Source of the DNA: an uncultured Planctomycetaceae bacterium
GTDB lineage: Bacteria; Planctomycetota; Planctomycetia; Planctomycetales; Planctomycetaceae
DNA length: 64,000 nt
NCBI GenBank assembly: GCA_963813715.1
Contig: CAWFAK010000009.1
Location: 480,001-544,000, forward strand
Direction of reading: 5' to 3'
In this document: in pieces, positions 3,533 to 47,182 of the stretch
Numbering within the stretch: position 1 is the stretch's first letter
How the letters are laid out: every line of letters begins with the position of its first letter
Translations under genes and position numbers: made by a program
Notes under the pieces: model-generated
Databases searched by the model: none
What the model was told of the DNA's origin: nothing
What the model saw: only the letters and a program-made list of their open reading frames with translations

Positions 3533-6500
3533 TTAACGATGCAGCCATGCGCAACACGCCGAGCATCTGGTCCCCGTCGACGGGTTTGGCCAAGTAGTCC
3601 CAGGCTCCCGCTTCGAGGCACTTCTCGCGATCTCCCTTCATGGCCTTGGCCGTCACAGCGACGATGGGAACATCTTTCAGATTGTTGATCTTCCGGATTT
3701 CGCGCATCGTTTCCATGCCGTCCATTTCCGGCATCATGATGTCCATCAGCACGATGTCGATTCCCGGGTCCTCCTGCAACCGGCGAATGGCATCGCGGCC
3801 GTTGTCGGCCGAAACCACCAGCATCTCGTGATCCTCCAACACCGTCGACAGCGCGAAGATGTTGCGGATATCGTCGTCGACGACGAGCACCTTGCGACCG
3901 GCCAGGGGCTTGTCCGACTGGTGCAGGTCCAACAGGATCCGCCGCTTCTGCTCCGGCAGCCCGGCGATCGGACGGTGCAAATAAAATAGGGTGCGGTCGA
4001 GCACGCGATCCAGTGAACGCGCGGGAGAAATTGTCGCCGACTGCGACAACCGCCGCCACGGTTCCGGATTGAACTCTTCCTCCGTATAGAGCACCACCGC
4101 CGGGCGCCGCACGTCGGCCGCATGTTCCTCGGCCCAGTTGGCAAACGCGTCGGAAAATCGCCGCTCGGAAGCCTCGGCCACCACGCAATCGATATTTCCG
4201 TTCCGCAGTTCTTTGATCGCGGCGGGCACGTCCGACACGACGGTGACTTCAACGTCCTTAGTGCTCAGGCAGTCCTCGAGTTTCTGTCGCGTCTCGGCCG
4301 AAGGCGCGAAGAGCAAGACCTTCCGCGCCGCGCGGGCCGCGTAACCGCGCAGGTCGCCCAACAGATCGTCCAGCAGTTCGTGGCTGGAGATCGGCTTGGC
4401 GAGGAACGCGAGCGCCCCGGCACGGAACGCCCGGTCCCGCGATTCGTCGGTCGAGATCACGCACACGGGAATGTGCCGCAGCGCCACGTCGGCCTTCAGC
4501 CGTTCCATCACGCGCCAGCCGTCGATATCGGGCAGGTGCAGGTCGAGCGTGATGGCGTGCGGCTGATACTGCCGCACGAGCACTAAAGCGCTCGCCCCCA
4601 GCGACGTCACCAGGCCTTTCATGCCTTTGGCCCGTGCCGATTCGAGTAGATAGCGGGCAAAGCCTTCGTCGTTTTCGACGATCAATAGCACCTGGTCGCC
4701 CGGCTGGATGTCGTCGCGGTCGTCGCCCGCCTCGTTGACGAGCTCGTAGCCCGCCCCGCCTCCGGTGTCGTTCTCCGGCAGGACGTCTCTGATGGCCGTT
4801 CCCGCCCAACCCGGCGTGCAAGCCGCCGTTCGGACCGCCGTTGCCGCGCGGGCCGACCGGCTCGCGCACCGGTAGCCGCGCCGGCGAGCCAACGAACGTC
4901 TGACCGTGGGAGGCGCCGCGGGGCGCGTCGTCCGACATCGATTTGCGGCCGCTGCGGGGCGGCGAGAAGCGGATCGGCAGATAGAGCGTGAAATTACTGC
5001 CGCGACCCGGCGCCGACGAGAGCCGAATTTCGCCTCCGAGCAAACGTGACAGTTCGCGGCTGATCGCCAACCCCAGCCCGGTGCCACCATACTTGCGGTT
5101 GGTCGATCCATCGGCCTGCTGGAAGGCCTCGAAGATGATCTGCTGCTTGTCGGTCGCGATGCCGATGCCCGTGTCGGTGACTTCGAAGGCCACCATCCTT
5201 TGCGACGGGTTGGGCGTCTCGTCGGCATCCGTCCAGCCCCCGTCGAACCGAATGCACGCTCAGCTTGACCTGCCCGCGATGCGTGAACTTGAACGCGTTG
5301 GACAGCAGGTTCTTAATGATCTGCTGCAGCCGCTTGGCATCGGTGAAGATCGACTTGGGCAGGACCGGATCGAAATCGACTTCGAAATCGACGTTCTTCT
5401 GCTCGCCCACGTGCCGGAACGTGCGTTCGACGAAGTTTCGCAGATCGTCGAAGGGCAATTCCATCGCGTCGACCACGACCGTCCCCGACTCGATCTTCGA
5501 CAGGTCGAGGATGTCGTTGATCAGGGTCAACAGGTCGTTGCCGGACGAGTGGATCGTCTTGGCGAATTCGGTCTGCTTCGGATTGAGGTTGCCTTCCACG
5601 TTCTTGGAGAGCTGGTCGGAGAGAATCAGCAGGCTGTTGAGCGGCGTCCGCAGCTCGTGCGACATGTTCGCCAGGAACTCGGACTTGTACTTCGAGGTGA
5701 GGGCCAGCTGCTTGGCCTTTTCTTCCAGTTCCTGCCGGGCCTGCTCGACTTCCGCGTTCTTGCGTTCGACTTCCTGGTTCTGCTTGGCCAGCAGGCGGGC
5801 CTTTTCCTGCAGCTCTTCGTTCGTCTTCTGCAATTCTTCCTGCCGAGTCTGCAGCTGATGGGCCAGCGACTGCGACTGCTTGAGCAGGTCTTCCGTGAGC
5901 ATGTTGGCGTCGATCGTGTTGAGCACGATGGCGATCGACTCGGCCAGCTGCTCCAGGAAGGCCTGGTGCGTCGGGTTGAAGCCCTCGAAGGAGGCCAACT
6001 CGAGCACGCCGCGGACTTGCCCTTCATAAGTCAGCGGCAACACGAGCACGCTGCGGGGCGGCGCTTCGCCCAGTCCGGACGAGACGCGAATGAAGTCGGT
6101 CGGCACGCTGGTCAGCGAAATCTTCGACTTGTCGAGCGCACACTGCCCGACGAGCCCCTGCCCCAGATTGATCCGCTTGCCCGTCGCCGCGCCGTCGCTG
6201 CCGTAGCTGGCCAGGAGCTTGAGCTGCGGCTCGTTGCTCGACGAATCGAGCACGAAGAACTCGGCCTGGAGTGCGGTGACCACCGGGCACACTTCGGACA
6301 GAATCATGCGGCCGACGTTCGTCAGGTCGCGTTGGCCCTGCAGCATACGGCTGAACTTGGCCAGGTTCGTCTTCAGCCAGTCCTGCTCGGTGTTCTTCTG
6401 CGTGGTGTCACGCAGGTTGCGGATCATTTCGTTGATCGTGTCCTTGAGGGCGGCCACTTCTCCCTGAGCACCGACCTTGATCGATCGCGTCAGGTCGCCC

Positions 6501-9404
6501 TTGGTCACGGCCGTCGCCACTTCGGCGATGGCTCGCACCTGCGTCGTCAGGTTGGCGGCCAGCTGGTTCACGTTCTCGGTGAGGGCCTTCCACGTGCCGG
6601 CCGCACCGGGCACCTTGGCCTGACCGCCCAGCTGCCCTTCGACACCCACCTCGCGGGCCACCGTGGTCACCTGGTCGGCGAACGTGGCCAGCGTGTCGAT
6701 CATTTCGTTGATCGTCTCGGCCAGCTCGGCGATTTCGCCCTTGGCTTCCACCATCAGCTTCCGCTTGAGGTCGCCGTTGGCGACGGCCGTCACGACCTTC
6801 GCGATACCGCGGACCTGGCCGGTGAGGTTACTGGCCATGAAGTTCACGCTGTCGGTCAGGTCCTTCCACGTACCGGCGACGCCCGGCACATACGCCTGCC
6901 CGCCCAGCTTTCCTTCGGTGCCCACTTCGCGGGCCACGCGGGTCACTTCCGACGGCGAACGACCGCAGCTGATCGACCATCGTGTTGACGGTGTTTTTCA
7001 GCTCGAGAATTTCGCCCTTCACGTCGACGGTGATCTTCTTCGACAAGTCGCCGGCCGCGACGGCTTTCGTCACGTCGGCGATGTTTCGCACCTGGCCGGT
7101 GAGGTTACTGGCCATGAAGTTCACGCTGTCGGTCAGGTCCTTCCACGTTCCGCCGACGCCGGGCACGTCGGCCTGGCCGCCCAGCTTCCCTTCCGTTCCC
7201 ACTTCGCGGGCCACGCGGGTCACTTCGGCGGCGAACGACCGCAGCTGATCGACCATCGTATTGATGGTGTTTTTCAGCTCGAGAATTTCGCCCTTCACGT
7301 CGACGGTGATCTTCTTCGACAGGTTGCCGGTGGCGACGGCCGTCGTCACGTCGGCGATGTTTCGCACCTGGCCCGTCAGGTTACTGGCCATGAAGTTCAC
7401 GCTGTCGGTCAGGTCCTTCCACGTACCGGCGACACCGGGCACGTCGGCCTGGCCGCCCAGCTTCCCTTCCGTTCCCACTTCGCGGGCCACACGGGTCACT
7501 TCCGAAGCGAACGACCGCAGCTGATCGACCATCGTATTGATGGTGTTCTTCAGCTCGAGGATTTCGCCCTTCACGTCGACGGTGATCTTCTTCGACAGGT
7601 TGCCCGTGGCGACGGCCGTCGTCACGTCGGCGATGTTTCGCACCTGGCCAGTCAGGTTACTGGCCATGAAGTTCACGCTGTCGGTCAGGTCCTTCCACGT
7701 ACCGGCGACCCCAGGCACGTCGGCCTGGCCGCCCAGCTTCCCTTCCGTTCCCACTTCGCGGGCCACGCGGGTCACTTCGGCGGCGAACGAACTCAACTGA
7801 TCGACCATCGTGTTGATGGTGTCTTTGAGTTCCAGAATTTCGCCGGCGACCACCACCGTGATCTTGCGGGACAGGTCGCCGTTGGCGATGGCGGTCGCCA
7901 CCTCGGCGATGTTTCGCACCTGGCCGGTGAGATTACCGGCCATCATGTTCACGCTGTCGGTCAGGTCCTTCCACGTACCGGCGACGCCTTGCACGTCGGC
8001 CTGCCCGCCCAGCTTTCCTTCCGTTCCCACTTCGCGGGCCACACGGGTCACTTCCGAAGCGAACGACCGCAGCTGGTCCACCATCGTGTTGATGGTGTTT
8101 TTCAGTTCCAGAATTTCGCCGCGGACGTCGACGGTGATCTTCTTCGACAAGTCGCCCGTCGCGACAGCCTTCGTCACGTCGGCGATGTTTCGCACCTGGC
8201 CGGTCAGGTTGCCGGCCATCATGTTCACGCTGTCGGTCAGGTCCTTCCACGTGCCGGCCACCCCTTGCACGTCGGCCTGGCCGCCCAGCTTTCCTTCCGT
8301 TCCCACTTCGCGGGCCACGCGGGTCACTTCGGCGGCGAATGAACCGAGCTGGTCGACCATCGTGTTGATGGTGTTTTTCAGCTCGAGGATTTCGCCCTTC
8401 ACGTCGACGGTGATCTTCTTCGACAGGTCGCCCGTGGCGACGGCCGTCGTCACCTCGGCGATGTTTCGCACCTGGGCCGTCAGGTTACCGGCCATGCTGT
8501 TGACGCTGTCGGTCAGGCTCTTCCACGTACCGGCCACGCCTTGCACGTCGGCCTGGCCGCCCAGTTTTCCTTCGGTGCCCACTTCGCGGGCCACGCGGGT
8601 CACTTCCGACGCGAACGACCGCAGCTGGTCCACCATCGTGTTGATGGTGTTCTTGAGTTCCTGCACCTCGCCTTTCACGTCGACGGTGATCTTGCGGGAC
8701 AAGTCGCCGGCGGCGACGGCCGTCGTCACCTCGGCGATGTTTCGCACCTGGGCCGTCAGGTTGCCGGCCATGCTGTTGACGCTGTCGGTCAGGTCTTTCC
8801 AAGTGCCGGCGACCCCTTGCACGCGGGCCTGGCCGCCGAGTTTTCCTTCGGTGCCCACTTCGCGGGCCACGCGGGTCACTTCCGAAGCGAACGAGCCGAG
8901 CTGATCGACCATCGTGTTGATGGTGCGGGCCGTTTTGAGGAACTCGCCCTTCAGCGGCACGCCGTCGACTTCGAGGGCCATCGTCTGCGACAGGTCGCCC
9001 TGCGCGACGGCGCCGATGACGCGGGCCGTTTCGCTGGTCGGATGGACCAGGTCGTCGATCAACGAGTTGACCGAACGTGCCGACTCCTCCCAGAAGCCGC
9101 CGATGTCGGACAGCGGCATCCGCTCGGACAGTTTTCCCTCTTTGCCGGCCACGCGACGCAAGCGGGCCAGCTCGCCGGCCATCCGCTCGTTTAGCTCGAC
9201 GACTTCGTTGAAGGCGTCGGCCACTTTGCCTTCGACGCCCGTCCACTCGATCGGCAGCCGCACGCCCGACTTGCCTCGCTTGAGCGACGTGAGCGCGGAG
9301 AGCAGCGTGACCATCGCCGCGTGCGACGGGTCCGTCGCCGGCGCCGCGGGAGACGCGTTCTGCTCCTTGCCATCCTTAGCGTGGGGTTCTTGGAGCCGAG
9401 GCAT
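3533..9404 (-). CDS. Giant poly-HAMP hybrid histidine kinase (HAMP array-GAF-HisKA-HATPase-3xREC), split by frameshifts
   Basis: Joined from ORFs 6828-9434, 4994-6946, 4258-5196 and 3471-5228. Repeated [19 protein letters not shown] units, [36 protein letters not shown], receivers. RBS CAGGAG before ATG 9404; probable true end WLHR* at 3533. Confidence 0.88.
6680..8920 (-). repeat. Coding tandem repeat with 276-bp (92-aa) period, about 8 near-identical HAMP units plus one diverged
   Basis: Near-identical blocks recur at about 6970, 7247, 7523, 7799, 8075, 8351, 8627 and 8903. Confidence 0.9.
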
Positions 9405-41192: not shown

Positions 41193-41282
41193 GATTTTCA
41201 CCACAAAGACACGAAGGCACGAAGAATTCTGAAATTCTGTTAGGGATTTACTTAGTGCCTTTGTGTCTTTGTGGTGAAAATC
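41193..41282. repeat. 32-bp inverted repeat (2 mismatches) with internal 8-bp periodicity, between convergent genes
   Basis: gattttcaccacaaagacacgaaggcacgaag ... cttagtgcctttgtgtctttgtggtgaaaatc. Confidence 0.88.
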
Positions 41283-41294
41283 TCCGTGTGCTTT

Positions 41295-44200
41295 TCAGTG
41301 GAAGTCGCGTGAGGAGACGCCCAGGTCGGCGATGCGTTTGGAGAGGTCGTCGAGGCGGTTGACCAGGATGTGGATCACGTTGTCCTGGCGCTGCAGGCGG
41401 CCGTGGGCCAGCATGGCGGTGGCCGTGCGGGCCGCGTGGTGATAGCGCTCCCAGACTTCGGGCCGCACGATCAGGTTGGCGAAGCCTGTTTCGTCTTCCA
41501 GCGTGACGAAGGTGATGCCGCTGGCCGTGCCCGGACGCTGCCGCATCAACGTCAGTCCGGCGACTTTCACCGGCCGATCGATGGGCAGGATCGCCAGGTC
41601 GGACGCCTTGGCCACGCCCATCCGCTCGAGGCCGGCCCGCAAGAATTTCATCGGATGGTCCTTGAGCGACAACCCCGTCGCCCGATAGTCGTCCACGACT
41701 TCTGCCAAGGGCGAAGCCGCCGGCAACGCGACGGCCGGCTCTTCATTGAGTCCAAAGTCCAAGGTCCAAGGTCCAAGGTCGGACGATTCCGAAGATGGGG
41801 TGGCGGTCTTTGACTTTGGACTTTGGACTTTGGACTTTGGCATACTGTTCTGCGCCGGCAGCGATTTCCACAAAGCCCGTCGGCGGCCCACCGTCAACGA
41901 GCCAAAGGCATCGGCCTGCGAGAGCCGGGCTAAGACCGCGCTGCTCAGTCGCGTGCGACGGGCAAAATTCTCGAACGAAACAAACGGCCCGTCCGCCCGC
42001 CGCTCGCAGATCACGTCGACCTGCGCTTGCGACAATCCCTTCACCAGGCGGAAGCCGAGGCGTAAGGCTAAGTCCAAGGTCCAAGGTCCAAAGTCCAAGG
42101 TCAGGAAATCGGAAGACACCCCATCGCGCCGACTTTGGACTTTGGACTTTGGACTTTGGACTGCTTCTTCCCGACTTTGGACTTTTTCCAGCGTCGCGTC
42201 CCATTCGCTGTGGTTGACGTCGACCGGGCGGATTTCGACGCCGTGGTCGCGGGCGTTGGCGACGAGCTGGGCCACGGCATAAAAACCCATCGGCTGGCTG
42301 TTGAGCAGGGCGGCCGCGAAGACGGCCGGCTCGTAGCGCTTGATCCAGGCCGACGCGTAAACCAACAGGGCAAAACTGGCCGCGTGCGATTCGGGAAAGC
42401 CATATTCGCCGAAACCGCGAATCTGGTTGAACAGCCGCTCGGCGAAATCGTCCGAATAGCCGTTCTTGGCCATTCCTGTGAGGAGTTTGTCGCGAAAACG
42501 ATCCATTTCTCCGGTTTTGCGCCAAGCTCCCATGGCGCGACGGAGTTGGTCGGCTTCTCCCGGCGTGAAACCACCGGCGATCACCGCCAACTTCATCGCC
42601 TGCTCTTGAAACAGCGGGACGCCGAGAGTTTTTACCAGCACACTCTTGATTCGCTCGTCGGGATAATCGACCGGTTCCTCTCTCGCTCGCCTCCTCAAAT
42701 AAGGATGAACCATATCCCCTTGGATGGGACCTGGGCGGACGATGGCGACTTCAATCACCAGGTCATAAAAATCCTTCGGCTTAAGCCGCGGCAGCATGGC
42801 CATCTGAGCGCGGCTCTCGATTTGGAACACGCCCATGGTGTCGGCGCGCTGAATCATGCGATACACCTCCGGGTCTTCGGCGGGGACAGTCGCCAGCGTC
42901 AGTTTGCGACCCCGATGTTTGTGGATCAGGTCAAAACCTTTGCGGATCGCCGTCAGCATTCCGAGCGCCAGGCAATCGACCTTGAGGATGCCGAGGCTAT
43001 CCAGGTCGTCCTTGTCCCATTCGATCACCGTGCGGCCGGGCATCGAGGCGTTTTCGATCGGCACGACTTCGCACAAAGGCTTTTGCGTCAGCACCATTCC
43101 GCCGACATGCTGCGAGAGATGTCGCGGAAAGCCGAGCACCTGCTGGACCAGGCTATTTAATTGCCTGGCTCGTCGGGCACGCGGATTGAAGCCCGATTCA
43201 CGGAAGCGGCCGGCGAGCTTTTCGCATTCGTTGTAGTTCTCGAGATTCTTGGCCAGCACGTCGACCTCTTCCAGTGAGTAGCCGAGTGCTTTCCCCACGT
43301 CGCGAACGGCCGAGCGCGGCCGATAGCTGATCACCGTGGCGGTCATCCCCGCGCGGTCGCGGCCGTATTTGTCGTAGACGTACTGGATGACTTCTTCGCG
43401 GCGCTCGTGCTCGAAATCGATGTCGATGTCCGGCGCTTCGTCGCGCTCTTTGCTCACGAACCGCTCGAACAGGAGATCGATCTTGACCGGATCGACCGAA
43501 GTCACGCCCAGGCAGTAACAGATGACCGAGTTCGCCGCCGAGCCGCGCCCTGACACAGGATGTCTCGGCCCCGCGCAAACTTCACCAGGTCCCAGACGGT
43601 GAGAAAGTAAGCCTCGTACCGCACCTCTTCGACCAGCTTGAGTTCGTATTCCAGCATTCCGCGGACCTTGTGCGGAATTCCGTCGGGGTAACGCTCCTGT
43701 GCTCCTTGCCACACCAGTCGCGACAGGTGCTCGATCGGCGTGAGGCCGGTCGGGCACAGTTCCTCTGGATATTCATAGCGCAGCTCGTCGAGCGAGAACG
43801 TTGCAGCGATCGGCCAGCTCGACCGTGCGCGACACGGCTTCCGGGCAATCGGCAAACAGCCGCCGCATTTCGGCGGGAGATTTGAGATGCCGCTCGGCGT
43901 TGGGGAATCGCCGATGCCCCAGCTCGGCGACCGTTGTGCCATGACGAACGGCCGTCAGCACGTCCTGCAGCGGCTGGCGGGACGGATCGTGATAGTGGAC
44001 GTCGTTGGCCGCCACGAGCGGCAAGCCGATGCTGCCGGGCCACGTGCCATCAGCGTGTTGCAGACGCAAACGATCGTCGGCTCCGCAGAAGAGTTCGGCC
44101 AGCAAGTGACACCGCTCGCCGAACGACGTCGCGATAAAGTGGCAGCGAGCGTTCGACCGCTTCTTCGTCGCTGCCTTCGGGAAGCCGGACGCAGGCCAGA

Positions 44201-44640
44201 AGTCCGTCGGCGAACTCGGCCACGTCGGCGAAAGTCAGCCGGCAAGTCGCCCTTTTCCGCCTGGCGGCGGCCGCGGGTGATCAACTGCGACAAGCGGCCG
44301 TAAGCGGCCCGGTCGGTGGCGAGGAGCACGACGGGGGCGCATCGTCGGGAGTGATCTCCGCTCCGATCAGCAGTTTCAGGCCGACTTCTTTGGCCGCGAC
44401 GTGTGCCGCGCACGACGCCGGCCACGCTGTTCAAATCCGTGATCGCCAGCGCCCGACAGCCGCAGCTCGGCGGCCCGCTGCACCAATTCGTCGGGATGCG
44501 AGGCCCCTTCAAGAAAACAGAAATTCGTTTTGCAGTGCAGCTCGGCGTAAGGAAATGCCGGCTCGCGATCCGCGTCCGGGCTCGTCGGCCGGCGGCGTCA
44601 GCGGGGCACGGATCCGTTTTGGTGCAGGAGGATCGGGCAT
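41295..44640 (-). CDS. dnaE2: Error-prone DNA polymerase III alpha (DnaE2/ImuC), several frameshifts in the 5' third
   Basis: YAELHCKTNF.FLEGASHPDEL PHP start, GRGSAANS, PDIDIDFEHERREEVIQY, GFPRHLSQHVGG, YGFPESHAASFA, C-terminal SRDFH. Confidence 0.92.
41749..41840. repeat. Heptamer-repeat hairpin element E1, in frame in dnaE2
   Basis: (GTCCAAR)4GTC - 31-nt loop - GAC(TTTGGAC)3TTTGG. Confidence 0.9.
42071..42185. repeat. Heptamer-repeat hairpin element E2, in frame in dnaE2
   Basis: (GTCCAAR)4GTC - 28-nt loop - GAC(TTTGGAC)4, plus a partial arm at 42173-42185. Confidence 0.9.
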
Positions 44641-44646
44641 CGTTCG

Positions 44647-44787
44647 GGCGAGCGGCAGGTGTCAGCCTGCCGGTTCTTTGGGTTTTCAGAGAGCTGGACC
44701 GGCTGACACGGAACAAAAAACAAACAGACAGAACAGAACAGCATGAAAAAAACAGAAGAACCGGCGGGCTGACACCCGCCGCTCGCC
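44647..44787. repeat. Inverted REP-like doublet (family C) with A-rich spacer between imuB and dnaE2
   Basis: ggcgagcggcaggtgtcagcctgccggttctt ... aagaaccggcgggctgacacccgccgctcgcc. Confidence 0.85.
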
Positions 44788-44801
44788 GGGTCAAATTCGC
44801 A

Positions 44802-46323
44802 TCAAAATTCTCCATGAACGAACCACGATCCTTCGTCTCGGGCGTGGAACAACCACAGCCGTTGGCCATCTTCAGTGTCGGCCCGGAAGTAGTCACGGTG
44901 GACGGCGGGGAAACGCCACCAGCCGGTCTCGATTCGTTCCGGGCCTTCGCAGTGCACAATGAGTTGATCGCGATCGGCCCAGTGCAGGCGAATGGGAGGT
45001 CCGTGAGGGACGACCGAAAAAACCTCCACCGGCACCGGCTCGGGAAACAGCCGCAACGGCCGCCGTGGCAGCGATTCGCGAACGAAAGAGCCGCGCACGA
45101 AGTAAGCGGTCTTTTGTTCTTCTTGTTCCTGAGCCGAACGACGGGCACGATGCAGCCGCTTCGTTGTCGGCGAGTCTTTTAAAGGAGAAGTTTGCTCCGC
45201 CAGGGTCGCGTACTCGACGGCCCGCTCGGGCTGATAATCGGGAGCCAGGCGCGGACAGAGCACGGCTCGCGGGCCGAGACGATTGCTCAACCGGTTGAGG
45301 AGCGAATCGAGATCCCGGCGGGCGTGGCGATGTTCGGCCGACTCGAACAGGGCCGACTGGTCGGCATCCAGAGGCGCGGTGCGGACCACGCGCAGCGTCG
45401 CGCCGGCCAATCGACCACGCAGCTGCACACGCTCCAGCTGCAGCCGCAGCAGTTCCCGCAGCCGCTTGGAATCGAGGCTGGGGCGAACCAGGCCGACGGT
45501 GAATCGCGTCGGCTCGTGGCCGGAAACGGTCAGCTCGATGTCGAGCTGCAGAATGCCGGCGTTGCGCCGTTCGAGCGGTTTCATCACCCGTTCGAGCAGA
45601 CGCTGCAAGATGATTTCGATCGCCGCCCGGTTTTCGAGCGGCGGCTCGCAGCCATACGCGGCTTCGATCGGCTCTTCCGGCCGCTCGGGAACGAGAGGCT
45701 CGGGAATTTCTCCCAGCGCCTGATCGAGGCGTCGCAAAATTTCCGGACCGAACCGGGAGGGCAGCGTTTCCCGCGGCAGGGCGGCGACGTGGCCGATGGT
45801 CGACAGTCCCAGGGAGTGCAGCACTTCCGCGACATTCGCGGAGATCCGCAAAGCCTCGACCGGCAGCCGGGCTCAGCGCCTGCGCCGAACGACCGGGAAG
45901 CACGATCAGCGGACCGTTCGCCGTGCGCGTCACCGCCCAGGCCGCGCCGATGGTGTCGGCCACGGCCGCGCGGGCGAGGAATCCCCAACCTCGAAAGTCG
46001 GCCACCACCTGCCGCACCATCCGCGGTTCGCCGCCGAAGAGATGCGCGCCGCCGGTGATATCTAAGAAGAGCGAAGCGGGAGTTTCCGACTCTTCGAGGC
46101 CGACGAGCGGACTGTAGCGACGGCAGCGATGAGCCAGGGAACGGAGGAGTCCAAGGTCCAAAGTCCCAGGTCCAAGGTCGGGAGATTCAGACGCTGTCGT
46201 GTCAGTCTTTGACTTTGGACTTTGGACCTTCGACCTTGGACCCGCTTGTTCGTCAGGCGCGAGCCCGCTTGGGCACGGTGGCTGGAGACGTTGGAGCAAT
46301 CGGACGCACAGTATTCGTCGCAT
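44802..46323 (-). CDS. imuB: Y-family polymerase-like ImuB (frameshift near 45870)
   Basis: MRRILCV, LFLDITGGAHLFGGE, AVADTIGAAWA, RFG...RLDQALG, GPERIETGWW...RDYF...WFVHGEF; lies between imuA and dnaE2. Confidence 0.88.
46148..46241. repeat. Heptamer-repeat hairpin element E3, in frame in imuB
   Basis: agtccaaggtccaaagtcccaggtccaaggtc - 31-nt loop - gactttggactttggaccttcgaccttggac. Confidence 0.88.
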
Positions 46324-47182
46324 CGTCGTATTCCAAGAGAGCGAACCTTTCGCCGGCTGCTCCTCGTCGGCAACGAAGGACTTCGACACGCCAACGCCGT
46401 GCGGACGATGAGTCTCCCTCGCCCATCGCCTCGATCCCGAGTCGCACGTCGCTCCAAGAGGGCTCGCCCCGCGCGGTCGGGGGGCGAATCAAAAAACCGA
46501 GACCGCCGCCGCGCTCGACCGAGAGCTGCAAGCGGCGGAAGACCCGCGCGGAGAGTTTTTGTAGGCGACAGAAGGTGACGGCCACGCCCCGCGAGGCCAG
46601 CGCCTGCTCGAGGGCCCACAAAGTTTCCACACTGGCCGCGGCCGGACTTTTCGACCGCTTCGCTGCTGCGCGCTTTGCTGGTGCGCTCTCTGTGCCTGCG
46701 CCGTGCCCCGCGGCTTTGCCCGGGCGGACGACGATCAGCCGCTCCAGGTCGATTCCCAGGGCGGCCGCCGCGGGAGGATACAGGCTCTCTTCGTCGTCGA
46801 TCACGATCAGCACCCGGTCTTCGCCGAGAGCGGCGCGGGCGGCCAGGAGCGCGAGCTGATCGGCCGAACCTTTTCCCGCCACCCACTCGATGAGCGTTCC
46901 CGCGCGAAAGCCGGCGTCGGGCAGGAGGCGATCGAGCGTTTCGATGCCGCTGGAAATTGTGTCGCCAGTCCCGCGAACCGGATGTGAACCGCGCTCCAGT
47001 TTTTGCAGCTGATCCGCCAACCGCCCCAGCGTGAGCGTCCGCGCGAGGGCCGGGTCGCTCTCCACTAAACTGTCCAGTGAGCCGCGCGGTGTGGAATCGG
47101 TGCGCGGTGCGGAGGGGCCAGCCGCCTGGGGCGCGCCTCCGGTAACGCAGTCGATCGCTCGTAGGGGTGAGTTGTCCGTCAT
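46253..47182 (-). CDS. imuA: ImuA / RecA-like translesion accessory protein
   Basis: ISSGIETLDRLLPDAGFRAGTLIEW, YPPAAAALGIDLERLIVVRP, LWALEQAL, FRRLQLSVE; overlaps the imuB start. Confidence 0.85.
   Translation of the reverse strand: MTDNSPLRAIDCVTGGAPQAAGPSAPRTDSTPRGSLDSLVESDPALARTLTLGRLADQLQKLERGSHPVRGTGDTISSGIETLDRLLPDAGFRAGTLIEWVAGKGSADQLALLAARAALGEDRVLIVIDDEESLYPPAAAALGIDLERLIVVRPGKAAGHGAGTESAPAKRAAAKRSKSPAAASVETLWALEQALASRGVAVTFCRLQKLSARVFRRLQLSVERGGGLGFLIRPPTARGEPSWSDVRLGIEAMGEGDSSSARRWRVEVLRCRRGAAGERFALLEYDDATNTVRPIAPTSPATVPKRARA

Follow-up and report, generated by a model that had tools for sequence, protein, structure and literature searches.

Introduction

The locus examined here raises the question of why three hairpins built of 7-nt repeats lie in frame inside two genes of one mutasome operon, which serves mutagenesis after DNA damage, in a planctomycete from soil. 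The window, i.e. the whole 64-kb stretch of DNA analysed, had been described in an initial annotation that regarded the hairpins as copies of one element, either targeted to the mutasome genes or tolerated there. The structure of the elements, their occupancy in related species and their distribution in other genomes were investigated, and the possible explanations were compared.

Results

Structure and position of the elements

The three hairpins, designated E1, E2 and E3 (Table 1), were re-found where they had been reported, and their sequences matched the earlier description. Each followed the pattern (GTCCAAR)~4-loop-(YTTGGAC)~4 and was 92-115 nt in size. The arms were approximately 28-35 nt in length and complementary at 84-92%, so that terminal inverted repeats were present; TRF analysis gave a period of 7 with 4.4-5.1 copies in each arm, showing that the arms were tandem 7-nt units. 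E2 consisted of a core hairpin (42071-42162) and an extra partial unit (42174-42183). A scan of the 64 kb for three-unit matches to the pattern (two mismatches at most) gave 14 matches, all within E1-E3, in agreement with the claim that the window held no further copy; none of 100 dinucleotide shuffles had a three-unit match. RNA folding of either strand produced a long hairpin with a minimum free energy of -42.5 to -62 kcal/mol (z -5.5 to -9.4), and 0 of 200 shuffles were equally good. Comparison with Rfam 15 revealed nothing at the gathering score; three chance-level matches to miRNA models were far below it.

Table 1. Position of the elements and genes in the window
Feature	Position	Strand	Description
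E1	41749..41840		Hairpin with heptamer arms that preserves the dnaE2 frame; situated in the linker joining the HhH domain (Pfam HHH_6) to the OB fold
E2	42071..42185		Hairpin with heptamer arms that preserves the dnaE2 frame; situated in the loop opening the HHH_6 domain
E3	46148..46241		Hairpin with heptamer arms that preserves the imuB frame; situated close to the 5' end of the gene, following the conserved peptide MRRILCVRL
dnaE2	41295..44600	-	Error-prone DNA polymerase; start approximate; hosts E1 and E2
imuB	44802..46323	-	Predicted catalytically dead-type Y-family homologue; hosts E3
imuA	46253..47182	-	First gene of the cassette, from NF033429 match and gene order; start uncertain
Other high-copy inverted-repeat element	44647..44787		In the imuB-dnaE2 spacer; 40-nt arms, 61-nt spacer

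As had been noted, all three elements kept the reading frame of their minus-strand genes, with the translation ..KSKVQSPKSK.. / ..DLGPWTLDFGL... The GTCCAAR array and its complement had a stop codon in none of the six frames, and every frame was a rotation of VQ(S/G)P(K/R)SK or (L/F)G(L/P)WTLD. The shared orientation mentioned in the initial annotation could be recognized for E1 and E3 from the homology of their loops, but it carried little meaning because the arms are palindromic. The loop with E2 had 46 residues, compared with 9 in the solved Thermus aquaticus Pol III alpha. At the E1 site of relatives the element came after the motif QKVMPLF(D/E), which was lost in this genome (G000); in the alignment QKVMPLF corresponded to a ..GLF.. 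segment of the solved Pol III alpha.

Host genes and the operon

The dnaE2 product matched the NCBIfam model NF004225 "error-prone DNA polymerase" with 1058.1 bits (cut-off 939) over its intact 820-residue part, while the imuA product matched ImuA_translesion (NF033429) with 83.6 bits, under the cut-off of 150. The imuB product was a divergent, N-terminally short Y-family homologue, matching Pol IV models at an E of 1e-11, far under their cut-offs. Its intact orthologue in the related species G009 (513 aa) was aligned by the Pol IV models at residues 79-350 (profile positions 103-380) and had no match in Pfam. The location of the gene between imuA and dnaE2 fits ImuB.

The 5' third of dnaE2 in the window had eight 1-nt indels (43547, 43799, 44029, 44244, 44332, 44406, 44456, and 44582) and imuB had one (45873/45874). 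All nine indels relative to the window recurred in up to four independent public runs, and the apparent frameshifts of the two genes are assembly errors. Long-read assemblies can thus give such genes the look of pseudogenes.

The inverted-repeat element of the imuB-dnaE2 spacer had a depth of 15-88, compared with about 5-10 in the adjoining bins, and many loose ends in the run contigs. It lies outside the heptamer family and shows that the operon gathers repeats.

E1 was found whole within an RNA-library contig (X7 record 25), and E3 was bridged by another (X7 record 32) as well as by DNA contigs. The suggestion that the hairpins are removed at the RNA or DNA level was not supported: these contigs retained E1 and E3, and no joint skipping a hairpin was found in the four public runs. 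The one variant detected at the elements was a 3-nt loss at 41841 in a single DNA run.

The repeat family in this genome

With the arm boundaries of the present analysis, the loops of E1 and E3 were alike at 21/30 positions (22/31 in the earlier count). The score of this pair, 12, equalled the maximum among 3000 shuffled loop pairs, and the two loops were reciprocal best matches among the hairpin loops of the whole genome. In another species the corresponding loops were alike at 24/30 positions (counted by eye). These loops show E1 and E3 to be paralogues. The kinship of the E2 loop with the E1 loop was weak (a 9-nt inverted match) and inside the range of shuffles.

The 7.49-Mb genome contained 27 paired hairpins and 25 and 21 lone arms. 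The earlier view that the three hairpins are copies of one structured element and did not arise by slippage on the spot was upheld, the repeat being a dispersed one. Among the paired hairpins 24 were intergenic, in spacers of every kind, and E1, E2, and E3 were the sole coding copies. These three lay within one 4.5-kb stretch (P = 0.0026 for any 3 of 27 random positions so close). A subfamily of about ten copies had a common 15-nt loop and was found in both orientations.

An autonomous parent, longer than the hairpin but sharing its ends and encoding a transposase, should appear as a lone forward and a lone reverse arm 0.5-5 kb apart; no such pair was found in G000, where the nearest case was a lone reverse arm at a distance of 1.9 kb from a hairpin. 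Among eight matches to PF01797 (RAYT) in this genome, one lay within 2.5 kb of a heptamer arm, and the repeat flanked none of them on both sides. In the 107 copies with full flanks, the left base was A/G in 97 and the right base T/C in 92, which merely extends the palindrome; TA on both sides was frequent and indistinguishable from the repeat itself. No clear target duplication and no common junction motif beyond the palindrome were found among these copies. Neither an enzyme nor a clear target duplication nor, in G000, an autonomous parent came to light, and it is the distribution of the copies on which the word "mobile" is based.

Sites in related species

The imuB site was filled, with a homologous loop, in six species (G000, G002, G006, G007, G009, and G010), and in these the arms and the peptide TLD(L/F)GL were invariant. 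It was cleanly empty in G003, with 36 codons missing, whereas G009, the sister of G003 in the dnaN tree, was filled. Site 2 of dnaE2 (E2) was empty in G009 and G005, contained the hairpin or its remnants in G006, G007, G011, and G004, and in G002 and G003 was occupied by another palindromic repeat, which was rich in GC. At site 1 the element (E1) was absent from G011, G004, and G005 and eroded in three others: G009 kept the left arm only, G003 had mostly lost the right arm, and G007 had lost nearly everything. In all empty, eroded or otherwise filled sites of the genus the orthologues read in frame. Empty or eroded sites were thus present at all three places, as expected from the earlier proposal that the elements lie in variable loops, and the pattern indicates old DNA insertions in permissive loops that were vertically inherited and are decaying.

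Comparison of E3 between G000 and four related species showed that the arms were 88-92% identical, compared with 78-79% for the flanks and 61-69% for the third codon positions of the flanks.

Spread across phyla and gene bias

The GTCCAAR heptamer hairpin was found in at least six phyla, mostly in soil bacteria, and in none of 300 other sampled Planctomycetota. Among the protein matches, 42/72 were in mutasome genes (39 DnaE2 and 3 ImuB-like), a count raised by the large number of acidobacterial species that are related to one another and by the better scores of multi-copy proteins; in the DNA-level sample, 5/16 verified coding copies were in dnaE2 or imuB. These two genes make up roughly 0.1% of coding DNA (a rough estimate), and the bias may exceed what tolerance alone explains. 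Acidobacterial DnaE2 had up to three copies, one of them in the loop of E2. In two phyla together, no fewer than three DnaE2 lineages carried 2-3 copies each at six or more different sites, and three ImuB-like lineages carried one copy each at three different sites. Site 2 was occupied in both phyla despite a protein identity of just 46%. DnaE1-type polymerases, which have the same fold as DnaE2, were absent from the matches read. In other phyla the gene families with an in-frame coding copy numbered at least 10; they were unrelated to one another and included enzymes. The statement that the element targets, or is tolerated in, mutasome genes therefore stands as a real gene-class bias of the coding copies; it does not describe the element as a whole, since most copies are intergenic and many unrelated genes are hosts elsewhere.

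Discussion

Proposed origin of the elements

The best explanation, with a probability of about 0.65, is that E1-E3 are dispersed selfish or junk palindromic DNA tolerated in a rarely used operon. They would be copies of a non-autonomous palindromic repeat of the RPE, MITE or REP kind, with about 4.5 GTCCAAR heptamers per arm, inverted around a loop of 15-45 nt. The insertions would have taken place in the ancestry of the present planctomycete genus, at loops of imuB and dnaE2 that permit them, with E1 and E3 deriving one from the other or both from a single master copy, and would have been inherited vertically thereafter. Survival in coding DNA is explained by two properties: the arrays are free of stop codons in all six frames, and selection on the host gene retains only lengths divisible by three. 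The elements are transcribed together with the operon and would be translated as floppy inserts of 31-38 residues, probably without function. The uniformity of the arms may be kept by slippage or conversion between the repeated units, with erosion proceeding through in-frame deletions.

The concentration in mutasome genes is most simply attributed to tolerance: the cell can do without the operon, its expression is confined to the aftermath of DNA damage, and the loops of its proteins appear to accept any insert. Unrelated repeats were also housed in the dnaE2 loops of relatives and in acidobacterial DnaE2 loops, so tolerance accounts for much of the pattern.

Alternative explanations

Insertion with a preference for the imuA-imuB-dnaE2 cassette, targeted or coupled to the SOS response, is considered unlikely. 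The element would move during the SOS response, when the operon is heavily transcribed or single-stranded, or the mutasome proteins would act near their own gene. Such a preference is consistent with the share of mutasome genes among the coding copies, with the many different sites hit in several DnaE2 and ImuB-like lineages, with the use of site 2 in both phyla, and with the clustering of the three copies in G000; E1 and E3, as paralogues 4.4 kb apart, are what local hopping would be expected to leave. However, the insertions are old and vertically inherited, not young, the counts are inflated, the loops are shared with other repeat families, and the junctions have no motif beyond the palindrome. 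Classic SOS-regulon genes such as recA, lexA or uvrA were absent from the host genes seen.

De novo local origin, in which heptamer arrays were born by slippage and converted into hairpins by template switching on the spot, would dispense with transposition altogether. The loops from other genomes (81) were all different while the arms were constant, and the arrays ranged from 3 to 14 units, as would be expected if each hairpin had arisen by itself; the lack of a transposase, an autonomous parent and a clear target duplication agrees with this too. Nevertheless, this origin is improbable in view of the E1/E3 loop homology and the subfamily with a common loop. The occurrence of one unit in several phyla, set against its absence from the 300 other Planctomycetota, is hard to obtain through independent slippage, and 3/4 of the exact three-unit period-7 arrays in G000 were of the GTCCAAR unit.

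Retention of the insert for a use to the mutasome, as a peptide or as a hairpin, is judged improbable. The right arm always reads TLD[LF]G[LP]W, a peptide similar to motifs that bind the clamp, among them QLPLWG of mycobacterial ImuB (PMC10421592). E1 is located exactly at the QKVMPLF motif, and the two show a complementary pattern: the right arm persists in G000, G002, and G006, from which the motif has gone, and the motif persists in G003 and G009, from which the right arm has gone. This complementary pattern, however, amounts to two or three events only on the dnaN tree, and G007 lost motif and arm alike. Furthermore, all three places have empty sites, an identical peptide occurs in unrelated enzymes, and the peptide follows inevitably from the DNA, whichever frame or orientation is read, so that selection is not needed to account for it. 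As a hairpin, the insert could affect transcription of the operon, mRNA stability or replication. The arms at the imuB site were invariant in six species and better conserved than the flanks and than neutral positions in the host gene, another possible reason being that the hairpin itself is under selection. The mRNA-sense hairpin tended to be the weaker strand (14/19 cases), but this tendency was not significant with related copies discounted.

A phase-variation switch, in which gain or loss of 7-base units would shift the frame and turn the mutasome on or off, is judged highly improbable: seven is indivisible by three, heptamer tracts slip in other bacteria and a switchable mutator would be attractive biology, but an arm has no more than about four units, these are imperfect (R/Y mixed), no 7-nt variant was present at E1-E3 in the contigs of the four runs, which drop rare variants, and all orthologues read in frame.

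Tolerated selfish or junk DNA remains the preferred reading. It is doubtful, though worth stating, that the GTCCAAR hairpins form a single class of element that spreads horizontally and truly prefers ImuA-ImuB-DnaE2 genes, either by inserting into DNA transcribed or single-stranded in the SOS state or through retention of its right-arm peptide, which resembles a clamp motif, in proteins active at the sliding clamp. If so, a selfish hairpin would be linked to the inducible mutagenesis machinery across at least two phyla. The question raised is that of relaxed selection on a rarely used operon versus damage-coupled insertion versus use of the peptide. In addition, the loops that were filled, emptied and refilled mark places in DnaE2 and ImuB, two poorly understood proteins, that tolerate 30-40 extra residues and are useful for tagging.

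Comparison with known systems

To our knowledge, in-frame palindromic "selfish DNA" is textbook matter for Rickettsia only. Heptanucleotide repeats (STRR), with small dispersed repeats nested within them, were reportedly described in cyanobacteria by Mazel in 1990 and Elhai in 2008. STRR arrays are direct tandem runs of other unit sequences in heterocystous cyanobacteria. Both STRR and the heptamer hairpin consist of 7-base tandem units, are abundant between genes and occasionally in frame, and are tiny and without an enzyme of their own. Unlike STRR, the hairpin has two short arrays face to face and a unique loop.

REP and REPIN sequences with RAYT, including GTAG- and CGTC-tagged ones, are likewise short extragenic palindromes near gene ends in many copies, as outlined in PMC3733652 and PMC8049555, and some acidobacterial hairpin loops start with GTAG and end with CTAC. 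In contrast to the GC-rich 20-40-bp stems of REP, the arms here are heptamer arrays; no association with a Y1 transposase gene was found in G000, and REP sequences are not known for a high share of copies in coding DNA. Bacterial MITEs with intragenic, ORF-fusing copies (ERIC, BOX, and Correia-type), in the accounts of PMC10969869 and PMC3184786, also end in inverted repeats, carry no gene and may form in-frame fusions; the hairpin differs from the MITEs of these accounts in that no autonomous parent was found in G000 and no clear target duplication was seen, and in having loops that vary between copies. PARCEL is similarly a palindromic repeat-coding sequence with horizontal spread among diverse microbes (PMC2996958). 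According to the same source, repeat proteins of mollicutes and of some eukaryotic microbes are built from PARCELs, whereas the hairpin is mostly non-coding or a single insert in existing enzymes.

The RPEs (Ogata et al. 2000, as described in PMC10969869) are about 150 bp in length, have family-specific sequences, occur in Rickettsia only and are regarded as selfish DNA. Like the heptamer hairpin, they are described there as dispersed palindromic repeats lying in frame in unrelated conserved genes; they are translated as extra, fold-compatible peptide segments, and the hairpins are probably translated as well. Unlike the RPEs of that account, the hairpin has heptamer-built arms and variable loops, occurs in several phyla and has a strong bias to one cassette. 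With many hairpin copies in the genome and in-frame inserts that some orthologues lack, the elements are RPE-like as a functional class, not a sequence family: they are likened to RPEs by description and are not filed as a member of any of the ten Rickettsia RPE families. New here are the occurrence of one heptamer hairpin across phyla and the concentration of its coding copies in mutasome genes.

Structure of the hairpins and their host genes

Three heptamer hairpins (E1, E2 and E3) were located in the imuA-imuB-dnaE2 mutasome cassette, whose genes followed each other in that order on the minus strand. In each hairpin, a loop of about 20–35 nt separated about four GTCCAAR units from about four YTTGGAC units. 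All six arms had a period of 7 with 4.4–5.1 copies (Tandem Repeats Finder), and the three elements folded as long hairpins on both strands (−42.5 to −62 kcal/mol), with 0 of 200 shuffles as stable. The three-unit pattern (at most 2 mismatches) had 14 matches in the window, 14/14 within E1–E3, and 0 in 100 shuffles. The initial annotation had described these hairpins and had seen no further copy within the 64 kb; the sequence, the period-7 arms and the folding agreed with the former statement, and the pattern matches with the latter. An Rfam search gave no real match.

The dnaE2 product scored 1058 bits against the NCBIfam model 'error-prone DNA polymerase' (cut-off 939), and imuA matched ImuA_translesion below the cut-off of that model. 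The imuB product was a divergent Y-family homologue in which about the first 100 positions of the Pol IV models were missing; ImuB of the window and of the related genome G009 (L016) aligned with these models from profile position 103 onwards only. Judged from the alignments, the Y-family fold of ImuB in this genus seems to be missing its N-terminal part, and E3 seems to lie in a short segment replacing that part.

The reading frames of dnaE2 and imuB were shifted in the window, and a split dnaE2 was also present in several related genomes with few contigs. A pseudogene reading of both genes was rejected: at each of the nine frameshifts the window differed by 1 nt from contigs of independent runs (up to four), most of these differences were seen again in two to four runs, and the imuB orthologue in G009 was intact (513 residues). 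The runs compared, as contigs only, were two DNA and two RNA-library runs from soil or rhizosphere in four studies. The frameshifts were read as assembly errors. The nine indels, together with the 82.6% completeness of the host genome (G000) in 18 contigs, suggest that the assembly was made from long reads and retains indel errors.

Three other repeats were observed in the window. The inverted repeat between imuB and dnaE2 was assigned to a high-copy repeat of another family because its depth was 15–88, against about 5–10 in neighbouring bins, and because many contigs ended there. The hairpin behind dnaE2 probably belongs to a third, terminator-like repeat family, and the long tandem repeat presumably represents the gene of a repeat-domain protein.

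Coordinates of the hairpins, other repeats and contig landmarks (window positions unless a contig of G000 is named)
Feature	Coordinates	Description
E1	41749–41840	Hairpin in dnaE2, site 1
E2	42071–42185	Hairpin in dnaE2, site 2
E3	46148–46241	Hairpin in imuB
Inverted repeat	44647–44787	40-nt arms, 61-nt spacer; occupies the imuB-dnaE2 spacer
Hairpin	41196–41280	Right 3' of the dnaE2 stop, between convergent genes; ~28-nt arms, CACGAAG/CACAAAG-like units
Tandem repeat	6491–8925	276-nt unit, 8.8 copies, 86% matches, 0 indels
Frame shifts, dnaE2	43547–44582	At least 7
Frame shift, imuB	near 45873	One
1-nt indels, window vs contigs	43547, 43799, 44029, 44244, 44332, 44406, 44456, 44582, 45873/45874	
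Metatranscriptome contig	45838–46400	Bridges E3
Second metatranscriptome contig	41300–41840	Holds the whole of E1
Contig breaks	42133/42134	At E2
Rejected joint	41781 -> 42079	One RNA-library contig
Short-armed hairpins	C16:211965–212021, C17:159883–159939, C14:45450–45520	Examples with the common loop
Composite units	C16:393400–394050	Three in tandem, ~220 nt apart

The repeat family across the genome

The genome of this soil planctomycete (7.49 Mb) contained 27 paired hairpins, 25 lone forward arms and 21 lone reverse arms (two units, at most 1 mismatch, arms at most 80 nt apart). Paired hairpins, not lone arms, were placed as genic or intergenic by crude gene calls and a codon-usage score, for which 974 long ORFs served as training set. 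By this measure 24 of the 27 were intergenic, and the spacers were co-directional (14), convergent (5), divergent (4) or had one flank uncalled (2); for several hairpins the nearest gene end was under 15 nt away. E1, E2 and E3 were the only paired hairpins in coding sequence, E3 being counted as coding because a conserved N-terminal peptide stands upstream. For three of 27 random positions to fall within 4.5 kb, P was 0.0026. Three of the four exact three-unit period-7 arrays were built of the GTCCAAR unit.

About 10 short-armed hairpins had a common 15-nt loop, TTGCGAGCCTCTGAT, in both orientations, and this subfamily was bordered by a further inverted pair, CAAAGTCCCGCG / CGCGGGACTTTG. Many lone arms adjoined a second repeat module, GGGACGGGACAC(GTTGTTTCACCGA), with 98 copies on one strand and 71 on the other; the composite units were made up of a heptamer arm and the GGGACGGGACAC module.

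Coding capacity, position in the proteins and RNA

Read directly off the sequence, the heptamer arrays of both arms contained no stop codon: the 21-nt cycle of GTCCAAR was GTC CAA RGT CCA ARG TCC AAR, and its complement was YTT GGA CYT TGG ACY TTG GAC. The three frames were rotations of one peptide, because 7 and 3 have no common factor, and the reverse complement of the element had the same form as the element. Every copy, in any frame and orientation, therefore encodes ..VQSPKSK.. and then ..LGPWTLD... On this coding logic, the survival of a gene after insertion would be decided by the loop and the total length alone. The total length of 108 copies modulo three (40, 36 and 32 for the three remainders) showed no bias to multiples of three, which fits copies that are mostly non-coding.

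The Pfam match HHH_6 enclosed E2, and E1 fell in the interval that separates HHH_6 from the OB fold; the 46 residues around E2 replaced 9 of Thermus aquaticus Pol III alpha. E3 followed the conserved MRRILCVRL start and preceded the first conserved ImuB block. An AlphaFold2 model of the C-terminal 434 residues of DnaE2 (12-row alignment) had a mean pLDDT of 39.9, too poor to judge the inserts.

Excision or bypass of the hairpins at the RNA level, which had been considered earlier, found no support: RNA-library contigs, in which DNA carry-over is possible, kept E1 and E3, and DNA contigs likewise spanned both. Joints skipping a hairpin were absent from the contigs of the four runs, contigs being prone to miss rare forms. 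One joint in an RNA-library contig was rejected as a repeat artefact, with 26 letters on one side and two like arms joined. No listed contig bridged E2, which is neutral for retention.

History within the genus

The best search matches for dnaE2 (n = 11) and imuB (n = 10) were compared as aligned DNA. At the imuB site, an element with a homologous loop was present in G000 and the related genomes G002, G006, G007, G009 and G010, and G003 had a clean 36-codon gap. In the dnaN tree G003 was sister to the filled G009 (support 99/98), so the gap is a secondary, precise loss. The distant homologues in G005, G001 and G011 (46–52% identical) had degenerate hairpin-like peptides in the same place.

Site 1 of dnaE2 held a full hairpin, with VMPLFD gone, in G000, G002 and G006, and nearly all of it was lost in G007. 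In G003 and G009 the element directly followed the QKVMPLFD motif and its right arm was gone; in G011, G004 and G005 an unrelated linker followed this motif. Site 2, which follows ..EWDATLE, was empty in G009 and G005, held a hairpin in G006 and G007 and remnants in G011 and G004. In G002 (L007) and G003 (L004) it held an unrelated GC-rich palindromic repeat translating as ..SPLSPCGRGVGGEG..; since these two genomes are not sisters in the dnaN tree, the loop must have been hit on two occasions unless the locus was exchanged between species by recombination. The alignment revealed empty or eroded sites, and all variants compared stayed in frame.

The loops of E1 and E3 were alike at 21/30 positions (a score that 3000 shuffles reached but did not exceed) and at 24/30 in another species (L089, L068). 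This homology upholds the earlier view that both are copies of one element; the likeness of the E2 loop to that of E1 was within chance.

Between G000 and four related species, the arms at the imuB site were 88–92% identical, the flanks 78–79% and the third codon positions of the flanks 61–69%. Conversion or slippage among units could keep the arms uniform without function, because an arm is four copies of one unit opposite four more; alternatively, selection on the hairpin may be the cause. For five further candidate coding hosts in G009, G010 and G011, Pfam placed 0/5 elements inside a gene, one of them lying at the 5' edge of a LarA-like gene.

Distribution beyond the genus and host genes

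A scan of one genome per species (three exact units, 15–45 nt, three exact units) gave at least 121 stretches. By record title, the matches listed included Acidobacteriota (Pyrinomonadaceae, Blastocatellia, Chloracidobacterium, Thermoanaerobaculia), Planctomycetota (Planctomycetaceae, Pirellulaceae, Gemmatales, Phycisphaerales), Chloroflexi, Verrucomicrobia, Lentisphaerae, Binatia, Sumerlaeia and others, nearly all metagenome bins. At 80 loci with flanks (81 elements, among the matches listed) the arms were constant and every loop was different. A looser pattern, of which G000 had 14 matches, was in contrast absent from all 300 further Planctomycetota genomes examined (237 other genera). Such a patchy distribution is what horizontal spread would produce, with mis-binning of single contigs possible.

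A control pattern, the hairpin read backwards, had one match each in G179, G229 and G307, all of one planctomycete family, in which a different heptamer hairpin seems to exist. Two predicted proteins, P0031 and P0051, contained long runs of the right-arm peptide, with more than 10 FGLWTLD repeats in P0031; arrays can thus grow far past four units.

Twenty-four ORFs from 22 of the 80 loci were open for at least 80 codons on either side of the element, and 13 of them had Pfam matches flanking it. These hosts were AIR synthase-related, hydantoinase, agmatine-type deiminase, Mfd, CtpB-like protease, CoaBC (two related genomes), two ABC components, aminotransferase, a cytochrome c protein (doubtful), a PHP-domain protein and dnaE2 of this genus with two elements. 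The PHP-domain host was an acidobacterial DnaE2, 76% identical to the protein match P0011, and by loop identity two more loci were the imuB element of this genus. Among the matches listed, 5 of 16 verified coding copies were in mutasome genes.

When E1, extended by six residues at either end, was used as a protein query, 29 proteins matched, 24 of them counted as DnaE2 by Pfam domains. With a hairpin peptide that lacked flanks and came from a small, unrelated ORF, 72 matches were obtained (E up to 1, 281 candidates): 39 were DnaE2 by Pfam domains, five were PF14907 proteins and the remainder occurred singly or in small numbers. Three of the 11 matches without Pfam domains were ImuB-like: one matched G009 ImuB along its whole length at 34% identity, and two were acidobacterial and Y-family-like. 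DnaE1-type hosts were absent from the protein matches examined. The acidobacterial DnaE2 examined, 46% identical to that of the window, carried up to three hairpins (in the PHP loop, in the loop of E2 and just before the RRDALW motif).

These mutasome counts are inflated, because related species inherited insertions and multi-copy proteins score better. An estimated 8 or so insertion events in DnaE2 and 3 in ImuB-like proteins, of some forty, are still far above the estimated ~0.1% of coding DNA that these genes make up. The gene-class bias proposed in the initial annotation thus stood as a mutasome excess among coding copies, but many unrelated genes were also hosts.

Interpretation and comparison with known repeats

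Most simply, the hairpins can be explained as selfish DNA that is filtered by selection. Such DNA would insert anywhere, copies would be lost from most genes, and those whose in-frame insert costs little would persist. In general accounts of the mutasome and in PMC10421592, the cassette is described as expressed only after DNA damage and as dispensable in the species studied. Cassette loops of relatives also carried other repeat families.

Tolerance does not fully explain the size of the mutasome bias or the absence of DnaE1-type hosts among the matches examined, and for both, insertion may instead be coupled to the SOS response or the encoded peptide may be retained. Bearing on retention, the right-arm peptide is similar to clamp-binding motifs, among them the mycobacterial ImuB motif given in PMC10421592, and E1 is placed at the clamp-motif-like QKVMPLF. 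Modelling ImuB residues 24–68 together with the beta clamp (30-row alignment) gave a score of 0.03 against a mark of 0.32, which is neutral on binding. A strand asymmetry (G-U pairs antisense, A-C on the mRNA strand) was rejected as not significant, with the sense hairpin weaker in 14/19 coding copies and 16 A-C vs 13 G-T pairs, in a count where several copies were orthologues and the host call of L044 was doubtful.

No autonomous parent element was found in G000, and no target duplication could be distinguished from the palindrome itself. A link to Y1 (PF01797) transposases, the kind that accompanies REP elements, was not seen in G000 (8 matches, 1 with an arm nearby).

No description of the GTCCAAR repeat was found in the literature searched, and in a term search the word 'insertion' was absent from a 2026 survey of bacterial polymerases (PMC12926913). 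What is new here is a single cross-phylum heptamer unit with a mutasome bias. In GC-rich acidobacterial copies (L037, L075, L078, L088, L106, L110, L113) the loop started with GTAG and ended with CTAC, and the loop of L088 was GTAGCTAC alone. The GTAG...CTAC loops of the acidobacterial copies recall the GTAG tag of REP elements, which are short extragenic palindromes.
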